A stretch of 64,000 bases of DNA, taken from positions 62,911,754 through 62,975,753 of the forward strand of contig NC_069372.1 of NCBI RefSeq assembly GCF_021730395.1, given 5' to 3'. Positions 7,040 through 41,333 of the stretch are shown piece after piece. The stretch comes from Mercenaria mercenaria. Its lineage: Eukaryota. Below the pieces are notes generated by a model, which was given only the letters and a program-made list of their open reading frames with translations, ran no database searches and was not told where the DNA came from. Both the position numbers and the translations under genes were made by a program. Each line of letters begins with the position of its first letter. The stretch's first letter is position 1.

Positions 7040-7070
7040 GGTGGGGTGGGGGGGGGGGGGGGGGGGGGGG
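7040..7070 (+). repeat. G30 homopolymer tract (C30 on the minus strand)
   Basis: ggtggggtgggggggggggggggggggggggg read directly. Confidence 0.9.
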
Positions 7071-7199
7071 GTTGTCTGCCAATGGTAACAATGAGCAAAG
7101 GGTTTTTGTCCGCGGCGGGTTTTGTCCTACAAGCATCATTGTTGTTAACATTCATATTTTTATGCCCCCAAAGGTGGGCATATTAAAATCGCACTGTCC

Positions 7200-7960: not shown

Positions 7961-8277
7961 ATGTGATTTTTTGCGAATACAACTGTGCCATTCTTGGGCC
8001 TACTTCGGGCGCATTTGTCACCAATAGTGACAGCTCTTGTTTATTCTTTCTATATATTCATATACTCTTTTGCAAAGAACTTCTCCCTTTATATAACAAT
8101 GTTAAATGTATAATATCTATATTATCAGTGTATTGTCATTTACTTCTTATCTAAGTGACATGTCAATAGCAGTAAGGTCACCAAAATGCTATTGACACTT
8201 ATGGATTGGTATGCTGGGATTATAAAAATAATCTATGTATAGATCATGTAAGGATAAGATAATACTGGTCTGTATCA

Positions 8278-10334: not shown

Positions 10335-10485
10335 GGTACCTGGTTAGAACCACCGACCTTCCGTAAGCAAGCTGGATGGCTTCCTCACATGAAGAATTTA
10401 ATGTCCCGAGTGAGGCTCGAACCCACGTCGATGACGAGCAAGTGATTTGAAGTCAGCGACCTTAACCAATCGGCTACGGAGGCCC
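10335..10485 (-). mobile_element. tRNA-derived SINE copy, inverted relative to the neighbouring copy
   Basis: The reverse complement reads ggggcctccgtagccgattggttaaggtcgctgacttcaaatcacttgctcgtcatcgacgtgggttcgagcctcactcgggac, with a box-A-like TRGCyrAtTGG and the box-B GGTTCGAGCC. Confidence 0.6.
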
Positions 10486-15430: not shown

Positions 15431-16486
15431 AAAACAAGAGGGCCATGAAGGCCCTGTATCGCTCACCTGACCTATTGACCTAAAGATCATCAAGATAGTT
15501 TCATTAAGATATGGTCATAGATGTGGCCTCTAAAGTGTTAACTAACTTTTTCTTTGATTTGACCCGGTGACCTGGTTTTGACCCCACATGACCCAGATTC
15601 GAACTTGACCTAAAGATCATCAAGATTAACATTCTGACCAAGTTTCATTAAGATATGGTCATAAATGTGGCCTCTAGTGTTAACTAGCTTTTCCTTTGAT
15701 TTGACCTCGTGACCTAGTTTTTTACCCTATGTGACCTAGATTCAAACTGGACCTTGAGATCATCATGATTAACATTCCGACCAAGTTTCATGAAGATACA
15801 ATCATAAATGTGGCCTCTACAATGTTAACAAGCTTTTCCTTTGATTTGACCTGGTGACCTAGTTTTTGACCCCAGATGACCAAATATCAACCTCATCCAA
15901 GATTTATTCAGGGAAACATTCTGACAACGTTTCATTAAGACTGGGCCAAAATTGTGACCTCTAAGAGTGTTAACAAGCTTTTCCTTTGATTTGACCTGGT
16001 GACCTAGTTTTTGACCCCGGATGACCCAATAGCGAATTTGTCCAAGATTTTATTGAGGGTAACATTCTGACCAAGTTTCATTAAGATTGGATCAAAACTG
16101 TGACCTCTAGAGTGTTAACAAGCTTTTCCTATGATTTGACCTGGTGACCTAGTTTTTGACCCAAGATGACCCAATATCAAACTCATCCAAGATTTTATTG
16201 CGGTCAACATTCTGGCCAAGTTTCATTAAGATTGGGCCAAAATTGTGACCTCTAGAGTGTTAACAAGCTTTTCCTTTGATTTGACCTGGTGACCTAGTTT
16301 TTGATCCCAGATGACCCAATATCGAACTCGTTCAAAATTTTATTGAGGGTAACATTCTGACCAAGTTTCATTAAGATTGGGTCAAAATTGTGACCTCTAG
16401 TGTTAACAGTCAAATTGTTGACGACGGACACTGGGCGATCACAAAAGCTCACCTTGAGCACTTTGTGCTCAGGTGAGCTAAAAATT
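15431..16486 (+). mobile_element. Non-autonomous Helitron/Helentron-like element ('pearl'/HINE-like): 5' end AACAAGAGGGCCATGAAGGCCC..GCTCACCTG, internal ~155 bp satellite array (about 6 units), 3' end GACGACGGACACTGGGCGATCACAAAAGCTCACCTTGAGCACTTTGTGCTCAGGTGAGCTAAAAA
   Basis: The termini are conserved with seven other copies in the window. A terminal inverted repeat GCTCACCTG/CAGGTGAGC, a 5' palindrome GGCCATGAAGGCC and a 3' hairpin CACCTTGAGCACTTTGTGCTCAGGTG are present. Confidence 0.75.
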
Positions 16487-16925: not shown

Positions 16926-17261
16926 AATAGATCCATTATGGTAATATGGCCTTTCATAAACTAAGGTGAGATGGCCAATAGCTATTCATAGTTAATGTTA
17001 TAATGCTGACACCCGACTATAAATAAAAATTTGTATCTTGTAAGCTCTAACTCAGCATCAATGTTCAGAATGTTGGATATGACAAGATAGACACAAACTG
17101 ATTTCTACTCTTTAATCATCTGTATATCAAAACATTTTACATATCTTTGTACAAACTGTACATATATTAAAGGATATTTAATTAATCCCTAATAAACACA
17201 TAAGAAAAAATATTAGCTTTGCAATTTGTTTTTCATTTAAATTTCATTTTCACAAAACAAG

Positions 17262-18470
17262 AGGGTCATGATGACCCTAGATTGCTCACCTGAGTAATGT
17301 AAGCTACACTGACAAGAGTAAGAGATCAGGTAAGAAAGTCAAACGTAAGTAAGCATTGAAATTTTTTCCAAGTTGTGTGAACATGTTTCAAATGTTAAAC
17401 TGATGCTTAAATGTTAAGAAAGTTGGTCAGTAGGTCACTTTCATGGTCAGTAGGTCACTTTCATGGTCACTGAAAGCCAGTTTTAAGATTGGTGTGCAAA
17501 ACTGTACATGTTATCCAAATTTCAAAGCTGTATCTTAAAAAACAAGAATGTAGATCCGTAAGTCAAGGTCACAGATCTGATAATTTTTTAAGTATATAAC
17601 TCATATAACAAGTGACCCACCGGGGCGGGGCCTCTTTTCACCCAAGGTCCATAATTTGAACAATCTTGTTAGAGGTCCACCATAAAATGGTACACACCAA
17701 AACTCGAAGGACTAGGCCTTGAACTTTCAGACAAGGAGTTTTTTCCTATACAAGTCTATGTAAAACTTTGGACCCCCAGGGCAGGGCCTCCTTTCACCCC
17801 AGAGGCATAATTTGAACAGTCTTGGTAGAGAACCACTATGAAATGCAACATACCAAATATCAAAAGCCTAGGCCTTGCAGTTTCAGACAAGGAAGATTTT
17901 AAAACTTTTTACCAATATAAGTCTATGTAAAACTTGGGACCTCCAGGGCAAGGCCTCTTTTCACCCCAAGGTAAAAATTTGAAAAAGCTTTGTAGAGGAC
18001 CGCAAGGCAATGCTAAATACTAAATACCAAAGGCCTAAGTCTTGTGGTTTCAGACAAGAAATTTTTTTAAGTTTTTTCCTATATATGTCTATGTAAAATG
18101 TGGGACCCCCGGGCCAGGGCCTCTTTTCACCCTAGGGGCATAATTTGAATAACTTTCATACAGGACCATTAGATGGTGTCATATGCCAAATATCAAGACT
18201 CTATATGGTGGAGTTTTGGACAAGAAGATTTTTAACGTTTTCTTTTCGGTTGCCGTGGCAACACGAGTTCTATGTGAAATTCAATTCTTTGAACAACTGA
18301 CAGGGGGCCAACCCAAGGATCATTCCTGTGAAGTTTGGTGTAAATCTGTCCATTGGTTTTTCAAGAAGTTTTTTTTTAGAAAATGTTGAAGGAAGTACGA
18401 CGGACACTGGGCGGTCACAAAAGCATACCATGAGCTTTTGGCTTGGGTGAGCTAACAATGCAAAATAAAT
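17262..18470 (+). mobile_element. Helentron-like element carrying a ~165 bp satellite (tataagtctatgtaaaacttgggacccccagggcagggcctcttttcacccc...)
   Basis: 5' acaagagggtcatgatgaccctagattgctcacctgagtaatgtaagctaca; 3' ...tacgacggacactgggcggtcacaaaagcataccatgagcttttggcttgggtgagctaacaatgc. Confidence 0.75.
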
Positions 18471-18849: not shown

Positions 18850-19450
18850 TTGCATTCCTCTGTAAATCAGTCCATCTGTCAGTTCTGATTTGAGGTTATA
18901 AAACTGAGGACTGAACCAGTCAATCTGTCAGCTCTGATTTGAGGTTATAGAAGTGAGGGACCAGTCCATCTGTCAGTTTTGATTTCAGGTTCCAAAACCA
19001 AGGGACCAGTCCATCCTTCAGTTCTGATTTGAGGTTATAAAACTGAGGAACCAGTCCATCAGTCAGTTCTGATTTGAGGTTATAAAACTGAGGAACCAGT
19101 CAATCTGTCCGTTCTGACATGAGGTTATAAAACCCAGGAACCAGTCAATCCGTCAGTTCTGATATGAGGTTATAAAACCCAGGAACCAGTCAATCTGTCA
19201 GTTCTGATTTGAGGTTATAAAACCCAGGAACCAGTCCATCAGTCAGTTCTGATTTGAGGTTATAAAACTGAGGAACCAGTCAATCTGTCCATTCTGACAT
19301 GAGGTTATAAAACCCAAGAACCAGTCAATCTGTCAGTTCTGATATGAGGTTATAAAACCCAGGAACCAGTCAATCTGTCAGTTCTGATTTGAGGTTATAA
19401 AACTGAGGAACCAGTCCATCCGCCAGTTCTGATTTGAGGTTATAAAACTG
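18850..19450. repeat. ~61 bp minisatellite, about 10 units (accagtccatctgtcagttctgatttgaggttataaaactgaggaacc)
   Basis: Read directly. Confidence 0.85.
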
Positions 19451-20039
19451 AGGAACCATTCCCTGAATGCAACACTGCTATTGATCAATGTCAAAAGTGC
19501 ACTCTGTAACAACCAATCAACTGATGTTATGTTAAGACTGGTCCACTATTTCAACTTAATGACATAAGGGTGCAATTATGATACCATGGTGGGAATAAAG
19601 CCCACAACATACAGGTTGTGCAGTGAAAGACTTCAACAAAATTCAAACTTTATTACTGGTCATTTCTACAGCCAACTATATCCTCACTCACAAGCCCACC
19701 ACTTCTCTAAATACTTCTGCAGTTAAAGGTGTACAGATTACAAAATTGTTGGCATCATATGCATTGACCACACTCTGGGTATTTAGATCTCAGAAAATGA
19801 TATACAATGGTAGAGCATAAAATAACACTAAATTATAGATAGTTATTAAAGCAGATGTTTATATCACAGACAAATACATTTAAGTCTTATGTCTTACAAA
19901 TAATACATTCAAAATAACTGTTCATAAGCAGAACATAACTGTTGTTCATGTCCCAACCACCATTTGTGCAAATATACACTTTGACATCCTATTATCTTTT
20001 CAATAAAACTTAACGGCATAATCATATAAGATAATCTGT

Positions 20040-20635: not shown

Positions 20636-21329
20636 TAACTGATTGTGAAAATAAAGCTCTATATAATAGTACACTTAACTGAAAAAAAAGAGTTACACAA
20701 CCTGAGTGAAGCGAAAATTAAAAGTATAAAAAAAAACAATACTCTCTAATACAAAAATTAAAACTATTGAATAAAAGATACAAAAAAAAAACTAGCGCTA
20801 TCACTGGAAGTGATAAATACCCCCACCAGGTATTGGATACAGGAAGTTGTTTTTTTTTAAGTGAAGGCAGGGTTCATACAGATCTGTCAAAATACGAAAT
20901 TCTAGGACTTCAAGTCAACTTGGCTGATCTCAGGTCCAACTGTTCTTCAGTACTTTATTATAATGCCAAAGGTCACTGACCTTTGACCTAGTGACTGCAA
21001 AATTAACAGAGGTCATATTACGGTCATGACTAACCCACCTACCCAGTTTGAGGATCCTATGCCCAAGTGTTTTGAAGTTATGGAGCAATAACCCAATATT
21101 TGACCTTGAATTGTGACCTTGACCTTTGACCATCAGGTATAGGTAATGTTATGTGACACATCTTCTTGTCATTAAGAATAATAATCCAAAGTTATATTAT
21201 AACCCTCTCAGGCACATAGAAGTTATGGAGTAAAAACCAAATATCTAACCTTTGACCTTGAATTGTGACCCTGACCTTTGTGATGTGTTCAACATGTCAT
21301 CTGGTCTTGATGAATAATGACGTGAAGTT

Positions 21330-22075
21330 AAATTAAACAACTGAGATATAGTGAAAATGCATAAAAATTAACCTTTATTTATTTATTTATTTGGGTTTTA
21401 CGGTGCACCAACACAGTATAGGTTATATTGCGCCACACAGGACTACAAATTTTGGTTTCACATCTCATTTACATCGAAATAAAAACATGAGGTATGAAAT
21501 CAAAATTTGCATACCTGCTGGAATCACAGAGTTACAGCAAAACCAAGTGTTAAGATCCTATTAGTTGCCTCTTACGATCATGCAAGGGTAAGGCAGTAAT
21601 TCCAATTCTTTTCATACATAGATCATCCCAGAACCACAAGGGGCTAAATTTTCCTTAAATTCTATGTAAAAGGGGGCATAATTCATGAAAAACTGGTGTC
21701 AGAGTTATGCACCTTGTGTCACATGATGTGGGTGATAAGGTGGAACATCTATTTTAAGTTTGAATCAAATCCATTCAGTTATAACTGAGATATAGTGAAA
21801 ATGCATCAAAATTAACCTTAGATTCTAAGTAAAACTTTCTAAAAGGGGGCATAATTTATGAAAAATTGGTGTCATAGTTATGCACCTTGTGTCATATGAT
21901 GTGGGTGATAAGGTGGAACATTTATAATAAGTTTGAATCAAATCCATTAAGTAATAACTGAGATATAGATTTTGGGACGTGACGTGACGAGACGGGACAA
22001 AACTGACTCCTATATAGCCCCCCCACCACCCAAACATGTTTGGTGGGGGTATAAACAAAAATGACAAAAAACAAT
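21330..22075 (+). mobile_element. Repeat-carrying element with ~190 bp units (aactgagatatagtgaaaatgcatcaaaattaacctta...) and a terminal gggacgtgacgtgacgagacgggac microsatellite plus the palindrome cccccaccacccaaacatgtttggtgggggt
   Basis: The 3' architecture (GAC-rich microsatellite followed by a hairpin) matches the other Helentron-like copies; the 5' end is unclear. Confidence 0.4.
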
Positions 22076-23027: not shown

Positions 23028-23117
23028 AAAGGCATGATTGTATATTTATATCAGTTCAAAGTCTATAAATAACTTTTCACATGTTTGATGTCACAGGTGC
23101 CAGACAAATTAAGTAAA

Positions 23118-25999
23118 CAAGAGGGCCAAGATGGCCCTAGGTCGCTCACCTGAGAAACACACCATAACACATCATAACAGTGTAAACATGTTTGACCTAG
23201 TGATTTCATGGAAAAAAATATTCTGGCAGTTATCATTAAAATTGGAGCTAAAATCTTGAGTATAAACAAGTATTTTCTTTGATTTGACCTAGTGACCTAG
23301 TTTTTAACCCCAGATGACCCATATTCGAACTTGACCTAGATTTCATCAAGGCTATCATTCCGATCATATTTCATGAAGATCAATTGAAAAATACAGCCTC
23401 TATCGCATACACGAGGTTTTTCTTTGATTTAACTTAGTGACCTACTTTTTGACCCAAGATGACCCATATTCAAATTCTACATAGATTTCATCAAGGGAAT
23501 CATTCTGACTTAATTTCAGGAAGATCAATTGAAAAATACAGCCTCTATCACTTACACAAGGTTTTTCTTTGATTTGACCTAGTGACCTACTTTTTGACCC
23601 CAAATGACCCATATTCGAACTTGAACTAGATTTTATCAAGGCAATCATTCTGACTTAATTTCAGGAAGATCAACTGAAATGTTTTTCTTTGATCTGACCT
23701 AGTGACCTAGTTTTTGATACCAGATGACCCATTTTCAAATGAAGCCTAGATTTCATTAAGGTTATCATTCTGACTTAATTTCAGGAAGATCAATTGAAAA
23801 ATACAGCCTCTATCGCATATACACAAGGTTTTTCTTTGATTTGAACTAGTGACCTACTTTTTGAACCAAGATTCGATCTTGACCTAGATTTCATCAAGGC
23901 AATCATTCTGGCGAAAATTCATGAAGATTAATTGAACAAGAGGGTCATGATGACCCTGGATTGCTCACCAGAATAATATGAGCTACATGTTTCAAATGTC
24001 AAACTGATGATTTTTAGAAATTTTTTGGAAGATTTTCCGATGTACAATCAAGTAACCCTGGGGAGGGGCCAATTTTACCCCGGGGGTCATGATTTGAACA
24101 AAGTTTGTAGAAGTCTACTAGGAAATGTTACATATCAAATATCTAAGATCTAGACCTTCTGGTTTTTTTTAGAAAATTTATGAAGATTTCCCTATGTACA
24201 ATCAAGTAACCCCTGGGGCTAGGTCAATTTGACCCTGGGGGTCAAGATTTAAACAACTTTTGTAGAGGTCCACTAGGCAATGCTACATGTCAAATATCTA
24301 AGCTCTAGGCCTTCTGGTTTATTTTTAGAAAATTTTGAAGATTTTTCTATGTACAATCAAGTAACCCCATGGGGCGGGGTCAATTTGGCCCTGGGGGTCA
24401 TGATTTGAACAAATTTTGTAGAAGTCTACTAGGCAATGCTACATGTCAAATATCTAAGATCTAGGCCTTCTGGTTTATTTTTAGAAAATTTTGAAGATTT
24501 TTCTATGTACAATCAAGTAACCCCATGGAGCGGGGTCAATTTGACCTGGGGGTCATGATTTGAACAAATTTTGTAGAAATCTATTAGGCAATGCTACACG
24601 TCAAATATCTAAGATCTAGGCCTTTTGGTTTATTTTTAGGAATTTTTTGAAGATTTTCCTATGTAAAATCAAGTGACCCCTGGGGCGGGGTCAATTTTGA
24701 CTCCGGGGGTCATGATTTGAACAAATTTTGTAGAGGTCCACTAGGCAATGCTACACGTGAAATATCTAAGCTCTAGGCCTTCTGGTTTATTTTTAGAAAA
24801 TTTTTGAAGATTTTCTATGTAAAATCAAGTGACCCCTGGGGCGGGGTCAATTTTGACCCCGGGGTCATGATTTGAACAACTTTAGTAACTTTAGCTCTAG
24901 GGCTTCTGGTTTTTGAGAAGAAGATTTTTTAAGATTTTTCTATGTAAAATCAAGTGACCCCTGGGGCGGGGTCAGTTTTGACCCCGGGGTCATGATTTGA
25001 ACAAAATTGGTAGAGGTCCACCAGGCAATGCTTCACACCAAATATCTAAGCTCTAGGGCTTCTGGTTTTTGAAAAGAAGATTTTTAAAGTTTTTCCTTTC
25101 GGTTGCCATGGCAACCAGAGTTCTGCATGGAATTCAATTCTTTGAACAATTTTTGTAGAGCTTCACCCAAGGAACATTCCTGTGAAGTTTGGATGAAATT
25201 TGCCAAGCGGTTTATGAGGAGATGTCGTTTGAAGTAAAAGTTTACGGACGACGGATGCCGGACGGTGACCCATCCTAATAGCTCACCCTGAGCCTTTGGC
25301 TCTGGTGAGCTAAAAATACAACCTCTATCGCATACACAAGGATTTTTTTAGATTTGACCTAGTGACCTAGTTTTTGATCCCAGATGACCCATTTTCGAAC
25401 TTGGCCTAGATTTCATCAAGGTTATCATTCTGACCAAATTTCATGAAGATCAGTTGAAAAATACAGCCTCTATCGCACACACAAGGTTTTTCTTTGATTT
25501 GACCTAGTGACCTATTTTTTGATCCCAGATGACCCATTTTTGAAATCGGCCTAGATTTTATCAAGATAATCATTCTGACCAAAATTCATGAAGATTAATT
25601 GAAAAATACAGCCTCTATCGCATACACAAGGTTTTTCTTTGATTTGATCTAGTGACCTACTTTTTGACCCCAGATGACCCATATTCGAACTTGACCTAGA
25701 TTTCATCAAAGCATTCATTCTGACCAAATTTCATGAAGATTAATTGAAAAATACAGCCTCTATTGTATACACAAGGTTTTTCTTTGATTTGACCTAGTTA
25801 CCTAGTTTTTGACCCCAGATAACCCATTTTCGAACTCGGCCTAGATTTCATCAAGGTAATGATTCTGACCAAATTTCACAAAGATCAGTTGAAAAATAAA
25901 GCCTCTATCGCATACACAAGCTAAATATTGACAGACGACAGACAGACAGACAGATAGACGCCGGAAGTCGGACATCAAGCGATCACAAAAAGGTGAGCT
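23118..25999 (+). mobile_element. Helentron-like element (outer copy) with a ~165 bp 'tgacctagtttttgacccc...catgaagatcaattgaaaaatacagcctctatcgcatacacaagg' array. It is interrupted by a nested copy at 23938-25320; its 3' end carries (GACA)n: acagacgacagacagacagacagatagacgccggaagtcggacatcaagcgatcacaaaaaggtgagctaaaaag
   Basis: 5' aaacaagagggccaagatggccctaggtcgctcacctgag. The same satellite type resumes after 25321 and ends at the conserved 3' terminus. Confidence 0.75.
23938..25320 (+). mobile_element. Nested Helentron-like element carrying a different ~165 bp satellite (gtaaccccatggggcggggtcaatttgaccctgggggtcatgatttgaacaaattttgtagaagtctactaggcaatgctacatgtcaaatatctaag)
   Basis: 5' aacaagagggtcatgatgaccctggattgctcacc; 3' ...gacggatgccggacggtgacccatcctaatagctcaccctgagcctttggctctggtgagctaaaaatac. 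The host unit ...catgaagattaattga|element|aaaaatacaacctctatcgc is split exactly by the insertion. Confidence 0.8.
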
Positions 26000-27835: not shown

Positions 27836-28545
27836 GACAAAATCACCCCCGCCTCCCATCCCCCTGTTTAATTTCACCACGGCAGACAAAATCCCCACTT
27901 TGATATTGTGGTTTAAAAAAAAACAAGAAATGCGGCAATGCCACGAAACCAGGTTTTCAACACTTTTCATAAGAATAAAAAAGTATACTGAATCACAGTG
28001 CACCACTTTAAAGCACAACCCTAACCCTAACCTAACCCTAACCCTATTTTTAGTAACAATGACCTTGACCTTGATCCCAGAAACCCCAAAATCAATCCCA
28101 AGCTACAACTTTATATAAGTTTTCTATACACCAAGTTTCATCATGATAGCTCATTCCTAAGTTAAGTTATTGACCGGAAACCCTATTTTAAGTAATAGTG
28201 ACCTTGACCTTGACCCCGGAAACCCCAAAATCAATCCCAGCCTTTGTCTTGATATAAGCTACATACATACCAAGTTTTATTCAAATATCTTTACCGAAAC
28301 AAAAGTTATTGACCGGAAACACCAGTTTGACGCCGCCCGCCCAACCAATGACATACCCCAATCTAATAAAATACAAGAAATTTAGAAGTCACAATTTTTT
28401 AAATATGATAATATCAAAAACTTTTAATTTGGAATGAAGTGAAAATCTGGAAATAATTGAAAATTATAAGGGGGGATTTTGTCCACCATAATCAAAATCA
28501 GCAAAGGTAATTTTTGTTGGAGAGGGTGGGGATTTTGTCCATATC
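27836..28545. mobile_element. TIR-bounded element: ~60 bp inverted termini with tandem GACAAAATCCCC motifs, flanking an interstitial telomeric repeat and two ~135 bp 'gaccttgaccttga' units
   Basis: The left end ...cccgcctcccatccccctgtttaatttcaccacggcagacaaaatcccc matches the reverse complement of the right end ggggggattttgtccaccataatcaaaatcagcaaaggtaatttttgttggagagggtggggattttgtcc. The same motif occurs at 51325-51350. Confidence 0.5.
28016..28046 (-). repeat. Interstitial telomeric repeat (CCCTAA)5, i.e. TTAGGG on the minus strand
   Basis: aaccctaaccctaacctaaccctaaccct. Confidence 0.9.
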
Positions 28546-29106
28546 CTATATAGTACAAATCTGCAGTAAAGGACTGAAACAAATCTAGAATGATAGTAAC
28601 TATGTGACTGATGTAAAATCATCATGGTGCTACATCTTTGAATAATGGCATTAACCATTTTATTGCAGTTAAGAAATCATAACCTCTGTAATAATTACAA
28701 CTACTAATGACAATGAAAAAACTCAACACAAAAATTCATTCTTGATAATCTTATGGACTATATTTTATCACTCCTCAACATCCAATGCATATGATGGAGT
28801 AAAAGCATAATTAGCTTAAAAAGCTCAATAAGACACATTATGAAACACATTTTGTTGCACCAACATGTCAATCATTATACAGTAAACCTCACTTATAAGG
28901 AACTCGGATATAAGGAACACTCGTTTATAAGGAACAGTTTTCAATTCCCCAACCTAATTCCTTCTTTATTCAATGTAAAAATCCTCGGTTATAGGGAACT
29001 CGGTTATAAGGAACACTCGGTTATAAGGAACACTTTTTCTAGTCCCAAAGTAAGAAATTCAATGGAAAACCCCTCGGTTATAGCGAACAGACATAAAAAG
29101 AATAAC

Positions 29107-30590
29107 AAGAGGGTCATGATGACCCTGGATCGCTCACCTGAGTAATATGAGCTACATGTTTCAAATGTCAAACTGATGATTTTTAAAAAGAAATTGGAAG
29201 ATTTTCCTATGTACAATCAAGTAACCCCTGGGGCGGGCCAATTTCACCCCGGGGGTCATGATTTGAACAAAGTTTGTAGAAGTCTACTAGGCAATGTTAC
29301 ATATCAAATATCTAAGATCTAGGCCTTCTGGTTTATTTTTAGCAAATTTATGAAGATTTCCCTATGTACAATCAAGTAACCCCTGGGGCTGGGTCAATTT
29401 GACCCTGGGGGTTCAAGATTTGAACAAATTTTGTAGAGGTCCATTAGGCAATGCTACATGTCAAATATCTAAGCTCTAGGCCTTCTGGTTTATTTTTAGA
29501 AAATTTTGAAGATTTTTCTATATACAATCAAGTAACCCCATGGGGCGGGGTCAATTTGACCCTGGGGGTCATGATTTTAACAAATTTTGTAGAAGTCTAC
29601 TAGGCAATGCTACATGTCAAATATCTAAGACCTATGCCTTCTAGTTTATTTTTAGAAAAATTTTGAAGATTTTCCTATGTAAAATCAAGTGACCCCTAGG
29701 GCGGGGTCATGATTTGAACAAATTTTGTAGAAGTCTACTAGGCAATGCTACATATTAAATATCTAAGCTCTAGGCCTTCTGGTTTATTTTTAGAAATTTT
29801 TTGAAGATTTTCCTATGTAAAATCAAGTGACCCCTGGGGCGGGGTCAATTTTGACCCAGGGGGTCAACAAATTGTGTAGAGGTCCACTAGGCAATGCTAC
29901 ATGTCAAATATCTAAGCTCTAGGCCTTCTGGTTTATTTTTTAAAATAACAAATTTTGTAGAGGTCCACTAGTCAATGCTACATGTCAAATATCTAAGCTC
30001 TAGGCCTTCTGGTTTATTTTTTAAAACATTTTGAAGATTTTCTTATATAAATCTATGTAAAATCAAGTGACCCCTGGGGCGGGGTCAATTTTGACCCCGG
30101 GGTTATGATTTGAACAACTTTAGTAGAGGTCCAATAGTCAATGCTACAAGTCAAATATCTAAGCTCTAGGGCTTCTGGTTTTTGAGAAGAAGATTTTTTA
30201 AGATTTTCCTATGTAAAATCAAGTGACCCCTGGGACAGGGTCAATTTTGACCCCGGGGTCATGATTTGAACAAATTTGGTAGAGGTCCACTAGGCAATGC
30301 TTCACACCAAATATCTAAGCTCTAGGGCTTCTGGTTTTTGACAAGAAGATTTTTAAAGGTTGAGTTCTGCATGGAATTCAATTCTTTGAACAATTTTTAA
30401 AGGGGGCCACCCAAGGATCATTCCTGTGATGTTTGGTGTAATTCTGCCCAGTGGTTTTCAAGAAGATTTTTTTAGAAATTGTTGACGGACGACGCACGAC
30501 TGACGATGCATGACGGACATCAAGCAGTCACAATAGCTCACCTTGTCACTTCGTGACAGGTGAGCTAAAAATTATTGAAAACCGGAGAAT
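29107..30590 (+). mobile_element. Helentron-like element, the same subfamily and satellite as 23938-25320
   Basis: 5' aacaagagggtcatgatgaccctggatcgctcacctgagtaatatgagctacatgtttcaaatgtcaaactgatgatttttaaaaag; 3' gacggacgacgcacgactgacgatgcatgacggacatcaagcagtcacaatagctcaccttgtcacttcgtgacaggtgagctaaaaatt. Confidence 0.8.
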
Positions 30591-31642
30591 CGCTGATGAT
30601 GTCAGAGTAACGTCGTCACTTTCACGCGCTTTCATGCACATGAATAAACACAAATTATTTCATTTCTATGATCTTCAGTTTGTTAATTCATGGATACGAT
30701 AAAAAGAAAATATATAATATCATCAAATCACCAAATACTAGACGATAGTAGAATTATATTTGCTCAAGATTATGCTCGAGAGCTACATGTATTAGGTATT
30801 TCATGTTAACAATAGTGAACGAAAATCAGTCACAGTCACGGTCATATTATCCTAAATAAATGTGCTAATTACACCTGATTAACAATAGCAAACAGTCCAG
30901 TTTACCAAATTTCCAATTGTAAAAATTATAGCAGGTGCTAAAATGGACAAAAGCAAAAATATAGGACTGGTATAATTTACACTTTAAATAATCCGTATGT
31001 ATGGGGGCGTTGTCTAGTCGTAATACACTGTATGTCATAAACACCCTACTTTTAAATTTTAATGCGTAGTCTAATTTAACATTTTGTAATAAAAAAAAAT
31101 TAACATGCAGTCAAGCAAGGTAAGGGGAGTAACTGCAACATATAGTCATTGTGTAGCACTCATTAAAAAGAAGATAGAAATAACCGACAAAAATTAACAT
31201 AAATTACAGTCATTCTTACCGACAAACATTTTGGCTTGGTTTAGGTTTATATCGCCGTGTTTCAACACTATTTCAGTCATATACATGCAGGCAGTTTACC
31301 TTAATTACCATCTCTCCAGGAAAGGACCGGTGCTAAAAATGCAACATTCTCCCATAAAGATTCAAGCTCGGCCCGGAGTGTGAACACACAGCCCTTATCA
31401 AACAGTCATCAGTCATAGTGTTCGCTACACAACCTGTGTTTGTTATACAAACCTCGATTACAAGGAACTAGTTCGCTATACGGATATAAGGAACCTCGGT
31501 TATAAATAATTTTTAGAAGTCCCAAGCTGTTTCCTTATAAGCAAGGTTTACTGTATTTGTTTTTGGAATTAAATATCATATATACATAGCCCTGTATTCT
31601 TATGAACTAACAGAATAAATGAAATATTTTCATGAACTTTAC

Positions 31643-32945
31643 CTGTATCTATGTGTTCCTGTGCTGCTTTTTGTTCAATTTTCCTGATCTCCAAGAGATT
31701 TGTTACATCTTTGAGACTATTGTTATCTTCGCCTAAAGCTTTTCCTTTGCTTTTCTTTGTTATTTCAGATTCAGGGTTGTTAGATTTGTTTCTATCCTTC
31801 ATTTTGGTCTTCTGTTCTTTGTTTAAATCATATCTTGACAATGAAGAACTCCTTGAACTTCTATGGAACCTAAACATCCTTGCTCTATCTCTTGATTGGC
31901 TTTTTGTGTATGTTCTTCTCCTTTGTATTCTTCTTCTTGGAGAGTTACTTCTGGATTTTCCAATAAATCTGTCTCTTGATCTTGCATACCTGTGTCTTGA
32001 TGTTCTTGGTGACAAACTTCTTGATCTTCTATGAAAAATACTTACTGGAGATCTTATTGATCTTCTTGGAGACCTACTTCTTAATCTTCTTGGAGACCTA
32101 CTTCTTAATCTTCTTGGAGATCTACTTCTTGATCTTCTCATAAATCTACTTCTTAATCTTCTTGGAGATCTACTTTTTGATCTCCTCTGAGATATACTTC
32201 TTGATCTTCTCATAAATCTACTTCTTAATCTTCTTCTTGATCTTCTCATAAATCTACTTCTTGAACTTCTCAGAGATCTAATTCTTGATCTTCTCAGAGA
32301 CCTACTTCTTGATCTTCTCAGAGACCTACTTCTAGATCTTCTCAGAGACCTACTTCTTGACCTTCTCCATGACCTACTTCTTGATCTTCTCGGAGACCCA
32401 CTTCTTGATCTTATCGGAGACCCACTCCTTGACCTTTTCAGAGACCTACTTCTTGACCTTCTCCGCGACCTACTTCTTGATCTTCTCGGAGACCCACTTC
32501 TTGATCTTCTCAGAGACCCACTTCTTGATCTTCTCAGAGACCCACTTCTTGATCTTATCGGAGACCCACTTCTTGATCTTTTCGGAGACCTACTTCTTGA
32601 CCTTCTCCGCGACCTACTTCTTGATCTTCTCGGAGACCCACTTCTTGATCTTCTCAGAGACCCACTTCTTGATCTTCTCAGAGACCTACTTCTTGATCTT
32701 CTCGGAGACCCACTTCTTGATCTTCTTAGAGACCCACTTCTTGATCTTCTCGGAGACCTACTTCTTGATCTTCTTAGAGACCCACTTCTTGATCTTCTCG
32801 GAGACCTACTTCTTGACCTTCCGCTAGACCTACTTCCTGATCTTCTAAAAGACCCACTTCTTGATCTTCTGAGAGACCTATTTCTTGATCGTCTCAGAGA
32901 CAAACTTCTTGATCTTCTATGTGACATACTGCTTGATCTTTTCAA
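31643..32945 (-). CDS. Probable continuation of the same RS domain ([22 protein letters not shown]...) ending ...[17 protein letters not shown] at a donor ACAG|gtaaag (31641-31642). It is separated from the upstream ORF by a frameshift within a ~570 bp tandem duplication.
   Basis: Track ORF 31569-32945. The same 60-aa block ([40 protein letters not shown]...) occurs in both ORFs. The DNA segment 32360-33000 is duplicated at 32930-33600. Confidence 0.55.
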
Positions 32946-33083
32946 AGACCCACTTCTTGATCTTCTTGGAAGCCTCCATCTTGATCTTCTTGGGGACCTA
33001 CTTCTTGATCTTCTTGGGGACCTACTTCTTGATCTTCTAGAGATCTACTTCTTGATCTTCTCGGAGACCCACTTCTTGATCTT

Positions 33084-36000
33084 TCAGAGACCCACTTCTT
33101 GATCTTTCAGAGACCCACTTCTTGATCTTTCGCGACCACTTCTTGATCTTTTCGGAGACCTACTTCTTGACCATTCTGCCGCAAACCTACTTCTTGATCT
33201 TCTCGGAGACCCACTTCTTGATCTTCTCAGAGACCCACTTCTTGATCTTCTCGGAGACCCACTTCTTGATCTTCTCAGAGACCCACTTCTTGATCTTCTC
33301 AGAGACCCACTTCTTGATCTTCTCGGAGACCCACTTCTTGATCTTCTTAGAGACCCACTTCTTGATCTTCTCGGAGACCTACTTCTTGACCTTCCGCTAG
33401 ACCTACTTCCTGATCTTCTAAAAGACCCACTTCTTGATCTTCTGAGAGACCTATTTCTTGATCGTCTCAGAGACAAACTTCTTGATCTTCTATGTGACAT
33501 ACTGCTTGATCTTTTCAAAGACCCACTTCTTGATCTTCTTGGAAGCCTCCATCTTGATCTTCTTGGGGACCTACTTCTTGATCTTCTTGGGGACCTACTT
33601 CTTGATCTTCTAAGAGATCTACTTCTTGATCTTGAAGACTTACTTCTTGATCTTCTCAGAGTGTTACTTCTTGATCTTCTTGCAAATCTACTTCTTGATC
33701 TTCTCAGAGACCTACTTCTTGATCTTCTTGGAGACTTTGATCTTGATATTCTAACAGACTTTCTTCTTGATCTTCTTTTAGGAGATTTACTTGCTGACTT
33801 CAAAAATGTCTTTGCTTTATTCCTTTTCAATGGTAGGGTGATTTTATTTTTTACAAAGTCTTTTGACTTTGTTTGTATTTTAGTTAAGCATACCTGATGA
33901 CTCCGACATCTTGCCATTTCGAAATCTGATTCATTTACCAACGAAGTATTCATAGAATAAGAGTATCCAGATGGTTCGGAAAAAGAGAAGGGTGTGTCTT
34001 CATTGATTTGTTTTGTTGAGTCAAATACATGACCTGTCTGTTTACCTCTCATTTGATCTGAGGACTGCATTTGTTCTACATACGTTTTCCTAAAATGATC
34101 ACTTCTCTCTGGGGAGACAGCAGCCTTTCTATAATGCTTAGGACTATCATCAAATGTCTCCATTTCTGCTTCAGCTTGGTGGCAAATTAGTGGTTCTGGT
34201 GCTCTATGGTTGAAACGAGGAAGAAGTTTAGCACGTTTTTTTGCTAAGTTTGGCGGAAGCATGTCTGGGTCAAAATCCGGTGCATAGTATTTGGATAATG
34301 TTTGGGTGTGCTGATAGCCTTCTGTTGATAATTTCTGTATTGTAGAACTATCAAATGCTGGACTGTCACCACTAGGTAAAGTTTGACTACAATCTTGTGC
34401 CATTTCACTATAATGAGGTGAAGTTGGGCTATAATGTGGTGAAGATGGGCTATAATGCGGTGAAGTTGGGCTATAATGTGGTGAAGTTGGGCTATAATGC
34501 GGTGAAGTTGGGCTATAACTTTGAGCAAGTGAGTTATAACTAAATGTAACAATTGGGTTATAACTTGAAACAACTGGCTCATAATTTGGAGCAACTGGGC
34601 TATAACTTGGAGCAATTGGGTTATAACTTGGAGCAAATGGATTATAACTTGAAGCAACTGGCTTATAACTTGTGGCAATTGGGTTATAACTTGAAGCAAC
34701 TGGGCTATAACTCGGAGCAGCTGGGTTATAACTTGGAGCTGTTGGGTTATAACTTGGAGCTGTCTGCTGGTAAGATTCTAACACAGATACTTCATTCAAA
34801 CTGGATTTAACATCACCTTCTTGTGTTGGTGCTACAAATGGCAATTTCTCAGCTGTATAGACTTCTTCCTCTTCATCCTCACAATAATCCTCTTCTTGGT
34901 CATCACAATAGTCTAGTAATTCATCAAATACTTGTGCTTTGTTTTCATGAATTTCTTTATCATCTTTATCCTTTCTCATTTTTTCCATTATTGGTCCATC
35001 AAAGGGTTGATTTGTCTCAGTTTCAGATTCAGAACACTCTAAAGGAACGGAAATATGTTCTGCAACAGGTGCACTCTTTCTTGCTGCCCAAGTTGCTAGA
35101 AGCTTTCCTGATGCAGGATAATTCTTTTTCTTCAGTCCTACTGACTCAGATATTGGTGAATGTCTTAAATCAGTTTGCAAAGAAGTGCCAGAAAATAAAC
35201 GCTGACTTTCACTCAGCTCTATCTCTGTCTTGGAATCAGAAGCCCAAGTTTGAAGTTCTGGTTCAACACAGAGGGATGATGATTTAACAGTAGTGCCCAT
35301 CATCAGAGTATCATTATAACTTAGAGGAATGTCCATTAATGCTAAATCTTCTTCACTTTCAGAGTCTGGTATGTTCACGACCTTTCTATGTCGCTTAGCT
35401 CCCCCTTTTCCAAGACCTTTACCACCTTTACCGCCTCTGCTTGTCCCAGACATGGACATATGCTGAGATCCCCCTTTTCCTATCCCTTTTCCTCCCCTTC
35501 CTCTCCCTGATACACCAGAGCCACCACTGGCACTCCTTATCCCTTTTCCTCCCCTAACTGTGCTTGATAAAGGCTGGACAGAAGCATCAATAGAAGCAGT
35601 TGAAGTAATATTATTAAATAAAAGATCAGGACTATTAGTATTACTGGCACTACGATCCCTATCTCTGTCTGTGTCACACATCTTTTTTCTTTTCTTTTTC
35701 AATTCTCTATCGGAATTGCTAGATGATGATTCTGAACAACTATCATCTTCATCTTCTTCAGAGCCAGAACTAGAACTACTACTGCTAGAACTACCATGTA
35801 TTCGCTCTATTTCACCAGTAGATGGGGCACTTTTTCGTGCTGCCTTTGTTGCTATTTGCTTTCCAGATGAACCTGTCTGTGAAGTCAATCTAGTTTTTGG
35901 ATCAAATATAGCTGTTGAATAATCTAGATACTTTTCAGTTCCTTTTCCGTTTGTGTCCCATCCTAAAGCATCCTCTAGTGCATTGTCAGAGAATAAATCA

Positions 36001-36133
36001 TCCTCTTCCAGCAGGGGAATTTCAGAGGCTTCTTTTAACGACATTTCCAATATATCTATATCCATATCAGAGATATTAATTTCTGGAGGCATTAAGCAAG
36101 GCATTTCAACATCTTCCATCAAACTTTTGTCAC
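33084..36133 (-). CDS. EF-hand/CTD-heptad/RS gene, giant exon (about 1016 codons): acidic N-terminal part, two histone H4-tail-like segments ([32 protein letters not shown]), SYNPxAP and YSPTSPH heptad arrays, then the RS domain. The frame is lost at 33084-33130 by 1-2 bp indels inside the 24-bp repeat.
   Basis: Track ORF 33084-36122 (TTG start). Acceptor ttttcacag|GTGACAAAAGTTTGATGGAAG lies 14 nt upstream, and G+GT keeps the frame from exon 39597-39695 (...PSEEQGDKSLMEDVEMPC). Confidence 0.75.
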
Positions 36134-36642
36134 CTGTGAAAATATTAACGTAACACTATATGTTTTATTTTTTGAACAAATTTATTTCTCCTGTTTACTG
36201 TATTTCAGTCCTACTGTCACAAAACTTAAGTCAGCGTAATAATGGTATCAATTTACTTATAGATATTTTTCACTGTAAGTTGGTCATAAATCTGTAAAGT
36301 TTAATTATACTGACCTCTTTTCAATTATACGCAAAATTGATATAAGAAAACTACTCACCAAAATTTGAAAATAGATCTACATCAATACTTTTTGAAATTA
36401 ATTACCCATGGTAAAAACAAAAGTTGACCTCATAGGAATGATTGACCAAGTTGTAACCTATATGATATGGATTGGACAGGGAAAAACCCTACTGACCTTT
36501 GATCTCAGTGTGATCCTGAGAATGAGCTAGGGATCTGCGTGTTGGGCATGACAAGTTGCCTCATTCTAGGAAACATTTGTGCCAAAAAATATTAAAATCC
36601 CTCAACAGATGGCAGATTTATGAACCACACAGGAAAAAAGAA

Positions 36643-38215
36643 ACAAGAGGACCATGATGGTCCTGAATCGCTCACCTGTCCCCACATGAACTGAGTATGA
36701 TGTCGTTTTTTCTATTATTTGACATAGTGACCTAGTTTTTGAGCTCATGTGACCTAGTTCTGAACTTGACCTAGATATCATCAAGATAAAAATTCTGACC
36801 AATTTTCATGAAGATCCATTGAAAAATATGGCCTCTAGAGAGGTCACAAGGTTTTGCTATTATTTTACATAATGACCTAGTTTTTAAAGACACGTGACCC
36901 AGTTTTGTACTTGACATAGATATCATCAAGGTGAACATTCTCACCAATTTTCATGAAGATCTCATGAAAAATATGGCCCCCAGAGAGGTCACAAGGTTTT
37001 TCTATTTATAGACCTACTGACCTAGTTTTTGAACGCATGTGACCCAGTTCAAAATTTGACCTAGATATCATCAAGGTGAACATTCTCACCAATTTTCATG
37101 AAGATCCATTGAAAAATATGGCCTCTAGAGAGGTCAAAATGTTTTTCTATGTTTAGACCTAGTGACCTAGTTTTTGACCACAGTTGACCCGGTTTCAAAT
37201 TTGACCTAGATATCATCAAAATGAACATTCAGACCAACTTTCATACAGATCCCATGAAAAATATGGCCTCTAGAGTTGTCACAAGGTTTTTCTATTATTT
37301 GACCTACTGACCTAGTTTTTGACCGCATGTGACCCAGTTTCAAACTTGACCTAGATATTATCAAGATGAACATTCTGACCAATTTTCGTGCAGATCCTAT
37401 GAAAAATATGACCTCTAGAGAGGTCACAAGGTTTTTCTATTATTTGACCTACTGACCTAGTTTTGGACCGGACGTGACCCATTTTCAAAGCTGATCTAGA
37501 TATCACCAAGATGAACATTCTGACCAATTTTCATGCAGATCCCATGAAAAATATGACCTCTAGAGAGGTCACAAGGATTTTCTATTATTTGACCTACTGA
37601 CCTAGTTTTTGACTGCAGTTGTTCCAGTTTCAAACCTGACCTAGATATCATCAAGATGAACATTCTGATCAATTTTCATGCAGATATCATGAAAAATACG
37701 GCCTCTACAGAGGTCACAAGGTTACAAATCCCAGTTTCGAACTTGACCTAGATATCATCAAGATAAACATTCTGACCAATTTTCATGAAGATCCCATGAA
37801 AAATATGACCTCTAGAGAGGTCACAAGGATTTTCTATTATTTGACCTACTGACCTAGTTTTTGACCGCAGTTGACCCAGTTTCAAACTTGACTCAGATAT
37901 CATCAAGGTAAACATTCTCACCAATTTTCATGAAGATCCATTGAAAAATATGGCCTCTAGAGAGGTCACAAGGTTTTTCTATTTTTAGACCTACTGACCT
38001 AGATTTTGACTGCATGTGACCCAGTTTCAAACTTGACCTAGATATCATCAAGGTGAACATTCTGACCAACTTTCATAAAGATCCCATGAAAAATGTGACC
38101 TCTAGAGTGGTCACAAGCAAAAGTTTACGCACGGACAGATGGACGGACAGACGACGGACGCTGCGCGATCACAAAAGCTCAACTTGTCACTATGTGACAG
38201 GTGAGCTAAAAACTT
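36643..38215 (+). mobile_element. Helentron-like element with a ~165 bp 'gacctagatatcatcaagatgaacattctgaccaattttcatgaagatcccatgaaaaatatggcctctagagaggtcacaagg' array, inserted into a different ~190 bp satellite (36420-36640 and 38216-39140), all inside an intron of the EF-hand/RS gene
   Basis: 5' aaacaagaggaccatgatggtcctgaatcgctcacctg; 3' gtttacgcacggacagatggacggacagacgacggacgctgcgcgatcacaaaagctcaacttgtcactatgtgacaggtgagctaaaaactt. Confidence 0.8.
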
Positions 38216-39596
38216 AATGAACTTTGACCTCGAAGTGTGACCTTGACTTTTTAGTTAGGGATCTGGGTGTGTCAAGTATGTAACATCAAAATACTTTGAC
38301 TGATGAAAGAGTTATGGGTTGGACAGGAAAAGAACCTACTGAACTCTGACCTCCGAGAGTGACCTTGAACTTTGGGCTAGGGGCATTTGTGTTGCCCATG
38401 AGACGTCAGCTCAATATAAGATACATTACTGCCATGTAATATTAAAGACTCTTCAAGGGTGATGGAGTTATGGACCCGACAGGAAAAAACAAAAAAAAAA
38501 CATGTTTGACCTAAAAGTGTGACCTTGACCTTTGAACTAGGTCTCTGGCTGTTGCACATGACATGTTGTCTCATTATGGGGTATACTTGTGCCAAGTTAT
38601 ATTAAAATCACTTCCATGACCAGTAAGGAAAAACACTATTTCCATTTATCCCCGAGTGTGACCTTGTTACATTTGTTCCAAGTAATATTAAAATCCCGTC
38701 AAGGATGACAGTATTATGAACCAAACAAGAAAAAAATACTTCTGACATTTAACCTTTCAAGTGTGACCTTGACCTTTGGGCTAGGGTTCCAGAAGTTGGG
38801 CAAAACACATCATCTGATTACAGGAAGTATTTGTGCCAAGTAATATTACAATCCCTTGATGGATGGTTAAGTTACAGACCAGACAAGAAAATGCCAAGTT
38901 GACCTTTGACCTTAAGTGTTACCTTGACCTTTGATCTCCAAGTGTTACCTTAACCTTTGCACTAGAGGTTCCAGTCTTGTGATTATGGGAAACATTTGTA
39001 CAAGTTAATATTAAAATCCTTTGCTGGATGGTTGCATTGCAGGCCTGACAAAAAATGCCCTGTTGAACTCCAAGTGTGAATTTAAGGATCTGGACACATC
39101 ATCTCATTATGAAGAACATTTGTGCCAGGTAATATTAAAGTCCCTTAATGGATGAAAAAGTTACAGACCTGGCATAAATTTGGGATGACTTACAGGACAT
39201 TTTACTATATGCCCAAGGGTGGTAGGTTGGGAAAGGCATTAAAAGTTCCTTTCTTATTATTTTTATTAATTATCATCCTTTTTAAAGGTAAAACAGCAGT
39301 TCAGATATATATACACAGCTGTTAGGTTGTTTTTCCTAGATTTCGTTCAAATATTTTACAACTTCTCCACATGCAACTAATAAGGTGGTGACTTCACAAC
39401 TTATGACACACTGTCTTCAGTCAAATCAGGAATCATTTTCACCACCAAGATCTCTAAACTGACATTGCATGCTCTCTATTTCTTGACAACCTGGCAAACT
39501 TATCTATAGACACTTGTGTGGTGACATGTGTTTTTCAACCAGTGCTTTGTATTTCCTACTACAGTCCCTTTACAAAAGTCTGTAAAAATGCTTTAC

Positions 39597-39695: not shown

Positions 39696-39872
39696 CTATA
39701 AATGTAAAAGATGAACTACCTTCAACTTTCAGAACATTAGTACATACAGCTGTTCTGTAGAGCCTTGCTCAATTCTTCTTTGAACATTTTATATTATATC
39801 ATTTCATTTAATTTGTTATATAATTTACCAGAAGGGCATTTTCAACATCCATATACTAATTAATGAAACAAG

Positions 39873-41333
39873 AGGGCCCTGAAGGCTAAATATTGCTAAC
39901 CTGACCTAGTTATTACCCCAGTCAACCTAGTATTTAATTTGACCTATACTTCACAGACAAACCTTAACACTTGGGGTCATCATGTAATTATAATTAAACA
40001 GTCTAGGAAATATGATCTGATAATTTTTTAAGTATTTTTTCCTATATAACTCATATAACAAGTAACCCCCGGGCAGGGCCTCTTTTCACCCCAGGGGCAT
40101 AATTTGAACAATCTTGTTAGAGATCCACTAGGAAATGCTACATACCAAATATCAAAGGCTGAGGCCTTGAACCTTGAGACAAGAAGATTTTTAAAGTTTT
40201 TCCTATATAAGTCTATGCTAAACTTGCGACCCCCAGGGCAGGGCCTCTTTCCACCCCAGAGAAATAAATTTGAACAAGAGCTATCACTAATGGTGACAAA
40301 TGCCCCCGCAGCACCTTGACCTTTGACCTGGTGACCTTGACCTTTGACCTGGTGACCCCAAAGTCAGTAGGGGTCGTGTACTCAATAAGTACTATCAGCA
40401 TGTGAAGTAAACGTTAACATTGTAACGAATGAACGAACGGACAGACAGTTGAAAACTAATATGCCTCCCTTGGGGGCATAAAAATTTTGGTAGAGGAACA
40501 CTAGGCAATGCAGCATACCAAATATCAAAAGCCTATGCCTTGCAGTTTCAGGCAAGAAGATTTTTAAAGTTTTTTCCTATATAAGTCTATGTAAAACTTG
40601 AGAACCCCTTGGTGGGGCCTCTTTTCAACTCAGGGGCATAATTTGAATAATCTTGGTAGAGGACCACTGGGCAATGCTACATACCAAATATCAAAAGCCT
40701 AGGTCTTGCAGTTTCAGACAAGAAGACTTTTAAAGTTTTTTCCTATATAAGTCTATGTAAAACTTGAGACCCTCCGGGGCAAGGCCTCTTTTCATCCCAG
40801 GTTAATAATTTGAACAATCTTGGTAGAGGACCACAAGGCAATGCTTCATATCAAATATCAAAGGCCTAGGTCTTGTGGTTTCAGACAAGAAGATTTTTAA
40901 AGTTTTTTCCTAAATAAGTCAATGTAAAACTTGGGACCCCCAGGGTGGGGCCTCTTTTCACCCCAAGGGCACAATTTGAACAAACTTCATAGAGGACCAT
41001 TAGATGATGTCACTTGCTAAATATCAAGACTCTATGCATTGTGGTTTTTGATAAGAAGATTTTTAGAGTTTTTCCTTTCGGTTGCCATGGCAACCAGAGT
41101 TCTGCATTGGATTCAATTCTTTGAACAATTTTGAAAGAGGGTCACCCAAGGATCATTCCTGTAAAGTTTGGTGTTATTCTGCCCAGTGGTTTTCAAGAAG
41201 AAGATTTTTTTAGAAAATGTTGACGGACGGATGATGCATGACGGAGGACTGACAATGGACATTGAGCGGTCACAAAAGCTCACCATGAGCCTTTGGCTCA
41301 GGTGAGGTAAAAAGTGACTTCTTATGTGTAAAC
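39873..41333 (+). mobile_element. Helentron-like element (satellite of the 17262-18470 type) that contains a small nested element of a second family at 40286-40468
   Basis: 5' acaagagggccctgaaggctaaatattgctaacctg; 3' gacggacggatgatgcatgacggaggactgacaatggacattgagcggtcacaaaagctcaccatgagcctttggctcaggtgaggtaaaaagtg. Confidence 0.7.
40286..40468 (+). mobile_element. Small nested element of a second Helentron-like family (5' AACAAGAGCTATCACTAATGGTGACAAATGCCCCC; 3' gaacgaacggacagacag...aatatgcctcccttgggggcataaaaatt)
   Basis: It splits a satellite unit of the host. The same 5' end is found at 45161 and 45379; the 3' palindrome is tatgcctcccttgggggcata. Confidence 0.6.

Follow-up and report, generated by a model that had tools for sequence, protein, structure and literature searches.

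Nested, probable HINE-type elements with T-run targets in a genomic stretch of Mercenaria mercenaria

In a 64,000-nucleotide stretch of the Mercenaria mercenaria genome (NCBI RefSeq assembly GCF_021730395.1, contig NC_069372.1, positions 62,911,754 to 62,975,753 of the forward strand; hereafter the window, whose own positions are used below), a tandem-repeat element is interrupted by a second one, which raises the question of what type of element is involved, into what sequence it inserts and what its insertion adds to the target. The window as a whole is AT-rich (GC about 0.36) and rich in 140-170-bp tandem arrays. An initial annotation had already proposed a nested insertion inside a satellite unit, and the analysis described here bears this out. 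Both elements very probably belong to the HINEs (the 'pearl' family of bivalves), rolling-circle transposons of the Helentron type that are non-autonomous and land in T-runs of the strand on which they are conventionally read.

The outer element (c3) extends from 23116 to 25999 (2.9 kb, with the nested element counted) and, judged from its end motifs and architecture, lies on the minus strand, i.e. its canonical 5' end is at 25999 and its canonical 3' end at 23116. Read on the plus strand, it starts at 23116/7 (aAACAAGAGGGCCAAGATGGCCC...) and ends at 25999 (...GGTGAGCT, followed by aaaaag). The inner element (c4, also on the minus strand), which is delimited by its end motifs, by sister units and by a chimera of its flanks, occupies 23935 to 25311 and consists of a core (23937-25311) plus two A's (23935-23936), 1377 bp (1.38 kb) in total. 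It splits one unit of the 145-bp array of c3, which is present on both sides of it (minus strand): on the left at 23273-23934 (TRF rows 23273-23679 and 23561-23799), where the last unit ends cut at ...gattaattg, and on the right at 25312-25920 (4.2 units, 89% matches). c4 is the younger copy, nested in the older c3.

When the two 60-bp flanks of c4 are joined, the chimera aligns over the junction with six sister units at 85-90% identity, and at the equivalent position the A-run of all six intact units is exactly five long (TTG-AAAAA-TAC). In the filled unit the sequence is TTG-AA-(CAAGAGG...GGTGAGCT)-AAAAA-TAC, with the A's at 23935-23936 and 25312-25316 and the C at 23937, and the net gain at the nested site is the core plus two A's. 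The insertion is indeed within an oligo-A stretch, as had been proposed: the A5 target run of the interrupted host unit (25312-25316) corresponds to T5 on the canonical strand, immediately 5' of the AGCTCACC end of c4, and such a T5 run is present once per 145-bp unit of the array. The initial annotation was also right that an exact empty site can be reconstructed, but not with the termini it gave: ACAAGAG...GGTGAGCT would leave six A's instead of five, the junction quoted as ttga directly followed by AACAAGAGG has one A too many (the actual sequence being ttg-aa-caagagg), and the termini are off by one or two A/T. Since the A's can go to either end, the insertion point may be read as G/A, A/A or AA/A, and the two A's at 23935-23936 may be assigned to either end of c4 or to a 2-bp duplication.

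Further copies were located with a motif scan of the window in which ACAAGAGGGNCANGATGNCCC was allowed up to 3 mismatches. This motif has 8 matches (versus 0.04 expected), seven of which are element ends, the 3-mismatch match at 53687 not being one, while GGTGAGCTAAAA has 8 matches as well (versus 0.46 expected). All matches of both motifs are on the plus strand, and together they define eight copies of a first family (c1-c8). Besides c3 and c4, and likewise assigned to the minus strand from end motifs and architecture, these are c1 (15433-16479; 145-bp array), c2 (17256-18453; 167-bp array), c5 (29104-30566; 156-bp array, its 3' 60 bp being 95% identical to those of c4), c6 (36642-38207; 145-bp array, nested in a 157-bp array of a second HINE family), c7 (49002-50324; 145-bp array, with an (ACGG)11 microsatellite) and c8 (39867-41308; 167-bp array, with degenerate ends and hosting a 0.2-kb second-family copy). 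As claimed earlier, the copies are bounded by A-runs, with AA on the left of all eight ('AACAAGAG') and AAAAA on the right of seven; a target-site duplication of 5-20 bp is not present.

The central array of c4 (24010-25004, minus strand) has 5.6 copies of a 155/156-bp unit and, in addition, a unit shortened to 125 bp; these units are unrelated to the 145-bp ones, their relatives being the 167-bp units found in c2 and c8. Two unrelated groups of arrays (145 bp in c1, c3, c6 and c7, and 156/167 bp in c2, c4, c5 and c8) sit behind related end modules. According to the open reading frame (ORF) list of the window, no ORF of at least 110 aa lies within any copy.

Read on the minus strand, the copies share one order of parts: a T-run, AGCTCACCTG, a loop, CAAGGTGAGCT, TTTTGTGATCGC, a (GTCY)n microsatellite, the tandem array, CAGGTGAGCGAT, a stem-loop, TCTTGT and T. 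The ends are (T)AGCTCACC.../...CCTCTTGT on this canonical strand and ACAAGAGG.../...GGTGAGCT on the other. Because the element is on the minus strand by Helentron convention, the 5' and 3' labels of the initial annotation are reversed, i.e. ACAAGAG, given there as 5', belongs to the 3' end (...CTCTTGT), and GGTGAGCT, given there as 3', to the 5' end (AGCTCACC...). At the 5' end, AGCTCACCTG, a 3-4-nt loop and the complement CAAGGTGAGCT form a hairpin, followed by the microsatellite, which is of the type (GTCC/GTCT/GTCG)n on the canonical strand. At the 3' end, all copies have a stem-loop (GGGTCAT-C-ATGACCC and variants) with a 6-7-bp stem and a loop of 3 nt, 5 nt from the end. The inverted repeats GCTCACCTG/CAGGTGAGC are subterminal, with a 9-nt perfect core (GCTCACCTG). 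Over 11 nt, the 5' TAGCTCACCTG and the 3' CAGGTGAGCGA differ by 1 mismatch in c1, c4, c5 and c6 (4/8), the repeats of older copies having 2-3 mismatches, and the end of the 3' subterminal repeat is at 25 nt from the element's own.

In c4 (all parts on the minus strand), the 3' stem-loop (AGGGTCAT-C-ATGACCCT, 23941-23957), supported by a DNA fold, lies 5 nt from the ...TCTTGT end, and the 3' subterminal inverted repeat (CTGGTGAGCAA) is at 23961-23971. The latter and the 5' repeat TAGCTCACCAG differ by 1 mismatch; where other copies have CCTG/CAGG, c4 has CCAG/CTGG, a variant altered at both ends. Its microsatellite-like tract (25244-25267) is of the ACGG/ACGA type on the plus strand (GTCY type on the canonical strand), and its 5' subterminal repeat with the adjoining complementary repeat (25280-25311) makes up a 32-nt hairpin, with a DNA fold of -13.0 kcal/mol (z = -6.05). 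The same parts are recognisable in the host c3 (also minus strand), with a 3' stem-loop at 23122-23138 (AGGGCCA-TCT-TGGCCCT; z = -3.5 for the DNA fold), the 3' subterminal inverted repeat at 23142-23152 (CAGGTGAGCGA), a microsatellite at 25930-25960 ((GACA/GACG)n on the plus and (GTCT/GTCG)n on the canonical strand) and the 5' subterminal repeat at 25990-25999, where there is no significant fold (z = -1.07). At this 5' end (25963-25999), the loop and the complementary repeat are precisely gone, AGCTCACC being joined straight to TTTTTGTGATCGC, which looks like a palindrome deletion and is consistent with an older, decaying host.

Apart from c3, the AGCTCACC...GGTGAGCT hairpin is present in every copy (7/8). 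Its stability greatly exceeds that of shuffled sequences: of the five intact copies that were tested, one has z = -3.5 and the others range from -5.6 to -6.7. Across seven copies, 4 of its pairs show compensatory change and 93% of the cells are paired, versus 41% or less once the partner column has been slid; for the 3' stem-loop (eight copies) there are 3 such pairs and 94% of the cells are paired, versus at most 56%. Both hairpins are conserved through compensatory change.

Copies outside the window allow the target to be defined further. When metagenome contigs were scanned with the 34-nt 3' end GGTGAGCNATNNAGGNNCATCATGNNCCTCTTGT, 63 contigs matched, with distinct flanks, which presumably represent bivalve DNA in environmental samples; in viral contigs, the same 3' end was not found. 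CCTCTTG is followed by a T in all 63 copies, and this T is therefore best read as the element's own (...CTCTTGT). A second T follows in 49 of them (versus 37% expected, p = 3e-11), the T count ranging from 1 to 7, with a single T in 14/63. Of the 22 flanks listed for the other side, among them several internal reverse matches of the palindrome, 11 have exactly T5 immediately in front of AGCTCACC. Paralogous empty sites for several of the 3' flanks are in T4-T6 runs, with 3'-side paralogues at 88-98% identity for L010/L055, L061/L047, L036, L003 and L044; matching 5' junctions for these were not located on the short contigs, and only the contig L018 gave both sides.

In L018, the arrangement is T5, the element and T2, versus T5-T6 in empty units, which agrees with the net gain found in the window. 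The site concerned, ATCAG-T5/6-CATAGGAAAATC in a Cg170-like unit, is filled independently in L018, L036 and L038, and further units in L036 and L043 have no element there, reading T5 once and T6 twice. More generally, ATCAG-Tn-CATAGGAAAATCTTTAAAAATC of a Cg170/BIV160-like unit is HINE-occupied in at least three contigs (L018 at 966-990 and 3424-3450, L036 and L038); this is either a recurrent hot spot or an amplified filled unit.

How, then, should these elements be classified? [quoted passage not shown] The copies c1-c8 have the subterminal repeats, the adjoining complement, the 3' stem-loop and the microsatellite plus array, and they have no coding capacity. Because their anatomy matches the published definition item by item, they are assigned to this already described element type; the initial annotation was right in calling them Helentron-like, but not in seeing a distinct lineage. 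It was also correct that the ends differ from those of canonical Helitrons (5'-TC...CTRR-3', insertion at A/T), since the target is a T-run and the ends are (T)AGCTCACC...CTCTTGT.

Some observations weigh against this assignment. An autonomous Rep/helicase ORF with the same ends was found neither in the window nor in the 63 metagenome contigs, and the link to a Helentron enzyme therefore rests on architecture and literature. Likewise, the likeness to the ends of Cg_HINE and Repbase consensus sequences rests on described architecture and not on an alignment of ends (in the supplementary Cg_HINE sequences, which comprise arrays only, the end motifs are absent except for a chance CCTCTTGT inside arrays). 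The net gain of two A/T at the nested site, finally, is equally expected from a 2-bp AA duplication, so that the absence of a target-site duplication, which the initial annotation had read from this site, cannot be separated there from a duplication of AA. This would suit a classical MITE (a miniature inverted-repeat transposable element), i.e. a derivative of a DDE cut-and-paste transposon with a 2-bp AA/TT duplication, which is how pearl, DTC84 and DINE-1 were first interpreted. AA is present on both sides of all copies in the window, and AA was called a putative target-site duplication in PMC3879986, whereas PMC4067079 and PMC7492417 concluded that there is none. A MITE is nevertheless quite improbable here. 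Instead of terminal inverted repeats and a fixed duplication on both sides, the elements have subterminal inverted repeats and asymmetric ends, with a long hairpin and a microsatellite at one end and a short stem-loop and TCTTGT at the other; the T counts are asymmetric too (about T5 upstream versus 1-7 downstream), and the 14 of the 63 copies with a single T after CCTCTTG are without TT there. Moreover, autonomous Helentrons, which show no target modification, share ends that are more than 95% identical with those of HINEs (Thomas et al. 2014, PMC4067079). As for the T's themselves, the nested site fits both a duplication and T's carried by the element, and what it supplies is the net gain of two.

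The remaining alternatives are less probable still. Both elements are tandem arrays, which recombine readily, and c3 has lost its 5' hairpin by deletion, so that two satellite-like arrays could in principle have been joined by unequal or illegitimate recombination without any transposition. This is very improbable, as the insert is an entire element in which neither conserved end module is missing, its layout is the same as that of six or seven dispersed copies with unrelated flanks, and the host unit resumes at the exact next base. The plus strand of the copies, ending in ...GGTGAGCT-AAAAA, could also be taken for a retroposon resembling a short interspersed nuclear element (SINE), with AAAAA as a short poly(A) tail. 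However, the A5 run is already in the empty site and does not vary in length, the 5-20-bp target-site duplication is missing, the internal layout is that of a HINE, and ARAGORN found no tRNA in the window, the sole Rfam match (10402-10483) lying outside the elements, all of which makes a retroposon barely conceivable. Otherwise, Rfam and ARAGORN gave nothing relevant to the elements in the window.

If the copies are HINEs, they may be regarded as cassettes of a 5' module (subterminal repeat, complement/hairpin and GTCY microsatellite), an array and a 3' module, which would be mobilised in trans by a Rep/helicase(/endonuclease) from an autonomous Helentron elsewhere in the genome. By analogy with Helitrons and Helentrons, an HUH Rep/helicase would nick the 5' end and displace one strand, displacement would terminate at the 3' stem-loop, and the single strand would be pasted into a T-run, in this case the T5 run in a 145-bp unit of the older copy. 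With one strand alone being transferred, no staggered-cut duplication would be expected. The role of the left end, that of the 3' hairpin and the reason for the lack of a target-site duplication are taken from the work on Helraiser (PMC5876387).

The first family is not the only one in the window. A second HINE family with 157-bp arrays and the ends AACAAGAGCTGTCAC...TGGGGGCAT is represented by the host of c6 (36400-39241), by copies at 7158-8041 (plus strand, with a 157-bp array) and 45385-45958, and by the short copy inside c8 (40273-40479, minus strand; AACAAGAGCTATCAC...TGGGGGCAT), which lacks a tandem array and lies in a 167-bp unit. The subterminal repeats of this family (ATGCCCCC.../...GGGGGCAT) differ from those of the first, and the terminal AACAAGAG/CTCTTGTT are the same. 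A third and a fourth family are possible at 20791-22056, from 45150 onward and at about 55400-56104 (with the ends ...TGGTGGGGGTATAAAC and ...GGTGGGAGCACAAAAA). For an exact empty site, these further cases of nesting are less informative than c4: paralogous units in the array of the c6 host have diverged to ~76% identity, with an uninformative A-run length, and the sister units of the short copy in c8 read TTG-AA-(C/T)AATCT, which did not yield a base-exact reconstruction.

Nearly all of these copies point the same way. All eight first-family copies are on one strand, as are those at 20791-22056, 40273-40479, 45150 onward, 45385-45958 and about 55400-56104 and the host of c6, so that about 13 of the 14 recognisable copies in the window are co-oriented, the copy at 7158-8041 being the sole clearly recognised opposite one. 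Nested copies are co-oriented with their hosts in 3/3 cases, and in metagenome contigs with two element ends, adjacent pairs are co-oriented in 9/10 (L003, L006, L010, L013, L014, L018, L044, L055 and L057, versus L033). This bias is not explained by target availability, because runs of at least five A's (178) and T's (188) are equally frequent outside the elements. Scans for orientation that do not depend on the family (microsatellite strand; palindrome plus CTCTTGT) gave too few matches to add power. The mundane explanations are head-to-tail rolling-circle products, loss of close inverted pairs, or selection relative to the gene strand. It is also conceivable, though unlikely, that co-orientation reflects a strand-specific integration into T-runs while these are single-stranded, e.g. 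on the lagging-strand template of a fork with a preferred direction. Such strand-specific integration is the behaviour of bacterial HUH transposons (IS200/IS605 family). Were this true for HINEs as well, their orientation would constitute a fossil record of the direction of germline replication.

The elements share the window with a variety of other features. The ORF at 53196-54107 has no introns, and its product matches NCBI 'syntaxin-1A-like [Mercenaria mercenaria]' at 100% identity. On the minus strand of 31569-36122, very long ORFs (1012 aa; 458 aa) have a tail rich in RS/SR dipeptides, for which an array of about 65 units of 24 bp (32053-33776) codes, as well as SPxYxPT-like heptads (a weak match to the C-terminal domain repeat of Rpb1); this is probably a gene for an SR-repeat matrix-type protein. 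A 726-aa ORF on the plus strand (2134-4314) with a reverse transcriptase domain (RVT_1, E = 1e-38) belongs to a copy of a non-LTR (long terminal repeat) retrotransposon, and the Rfam match mentioned above is a marginal tRNA match on the minus strand (29.5 bits versus a threshold of 29), not confirmed by ARAGORN, which is possibly a tRNA-derived SINE head. Further simple or tandem repeats are an 80-bp array at 57560-61133 (44 copies, 90% identity; with a 243-aa minus-strand frame that has spurious Pfam matches only), an interstitial (AACCCT)5 of the telomere-type hexamer at 28017-28046, adjoining a 139-bp repeat, and minisatellites at 42212-43616 (27/28-bp units, about 51 times) and 18868-19458 (45-bp units, 13 times). 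A G29 homopolymer (7043-7071) lies about 90 bp outside the end (7158) of the second-family copy in opposite orientation.

Rolling-circle elements have been reported to make up 4-5% of the M. mercenaria genome (PMC8905726), with 'satellites' at 10%, and no paper on M. mercenaria naming the present families was found. With the assignment made above, this species carries the same tandem-repeat Helentron derivatives as oysters, Donax and Drosophila, and the terminal motif CTCTTGT(T)/AACAAGAG is common to distantly related clams. Repeated landing in T-runs of each other's repeat units is one route by which composite satellite-like arrays can be built and spread. Good descriptions of this type of element and of the targets it prefers exist already for bivalves and flies; the nested site illustrates an exact empty site neatly enough for teaching, and the result has little import beyond annotation.

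Compared with known systems, the elements have in common with canonical Helitrons such as Helraiser asymmetric ends, a 3' hairpin near the end, possibly the lack of a target-site duplication, a presumed single-strand rolling-circle transfer and the predominance of non-autonomous over autonomous copies (PMC5876387). Canonical Helitrons, however, insert at A/T and do not have subterminal inverted repeats, whereas the present elements do have such repeats, and T-run targets. The likeness to DINE-1 and other HINEs of Drosophila, mosquito and mite is one of described features: it comprises subterminal repeats of about 11-13 bp, the adjoining 5' repeat, a microsatellite, central repeats, a 3' stem-loop and a TT/T-rich target (PMC4067079). 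In the mite families the 3' subterminal repeat lies 38-60 bp from the end (25 nt here), and autonomous Helentrons have been identified for these systems (PMC4067079).

Closer at hand are the bivalve elements that were described as MITEs with an AA target-site duplication, i.e. pearl (CvA/CvE/CvG) of Crassostrea virginica and DTC84 of Donax trunculus. DTC84 consists of a left flank, core repeats, (ACGG)n and a right flank, with a 'putative TSD AA' (Satovic & Plohl 2013, PMC3879986). Both share with the copies in the window the succession of a left flank, up to about 5 core repeats of ~160 bp, (ACGG/ACGA)n and a right flank, in the same orientation as the plus strand of the window and with AA at both termini (PMC3879986). 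The left-flank primer of DTC84 (AACAAGAGCACCGCTGGGCG) even opens with the octamer AACAAGAG, as does every copy here; beyond this octamer the flanks differ, as do the core repeats.

The most detailed likeness is to Cg_HINE of Crassostrea gigas, for which GTCY microsatellites, T-rich targets and no evident target-site duplication were reported with the help of empty-site analysis (Vojvoda Zeljko et al. 2020, PMC7492417), as were insertions into other repeats and the presence of both orientations genome-wide (PMC7492417). In both cases, a left module with the 5' subterminal repeat, its complement 1-12 bp away and a GTCY/GTCC microsatellite is followed by central satellite-like repeats of about 145-180 bp, the 3' subterminal repeat and then a palindrome; both are found at T-rich/TT sites and in other repeats, with no evident target-site duplication in Cg_HINE and, here, none beyond a possible 2 bp of AA/TT. 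Modules are shuffled in both as well, here in the form of 145-bp and 156/167-bp arrays behind similar ends. The host is an oyster in one case and a heterodont clam in the other, the repeat units differ, and the two orientations of Cg_HINE contrast with the nearly single orientation in this window. Nonetheless, the 167-bp unit shares a stretch of ~66 nt with C. gigas CL1 (Cg170-type), with a score of 55 versus a shuffle maximum of 25.

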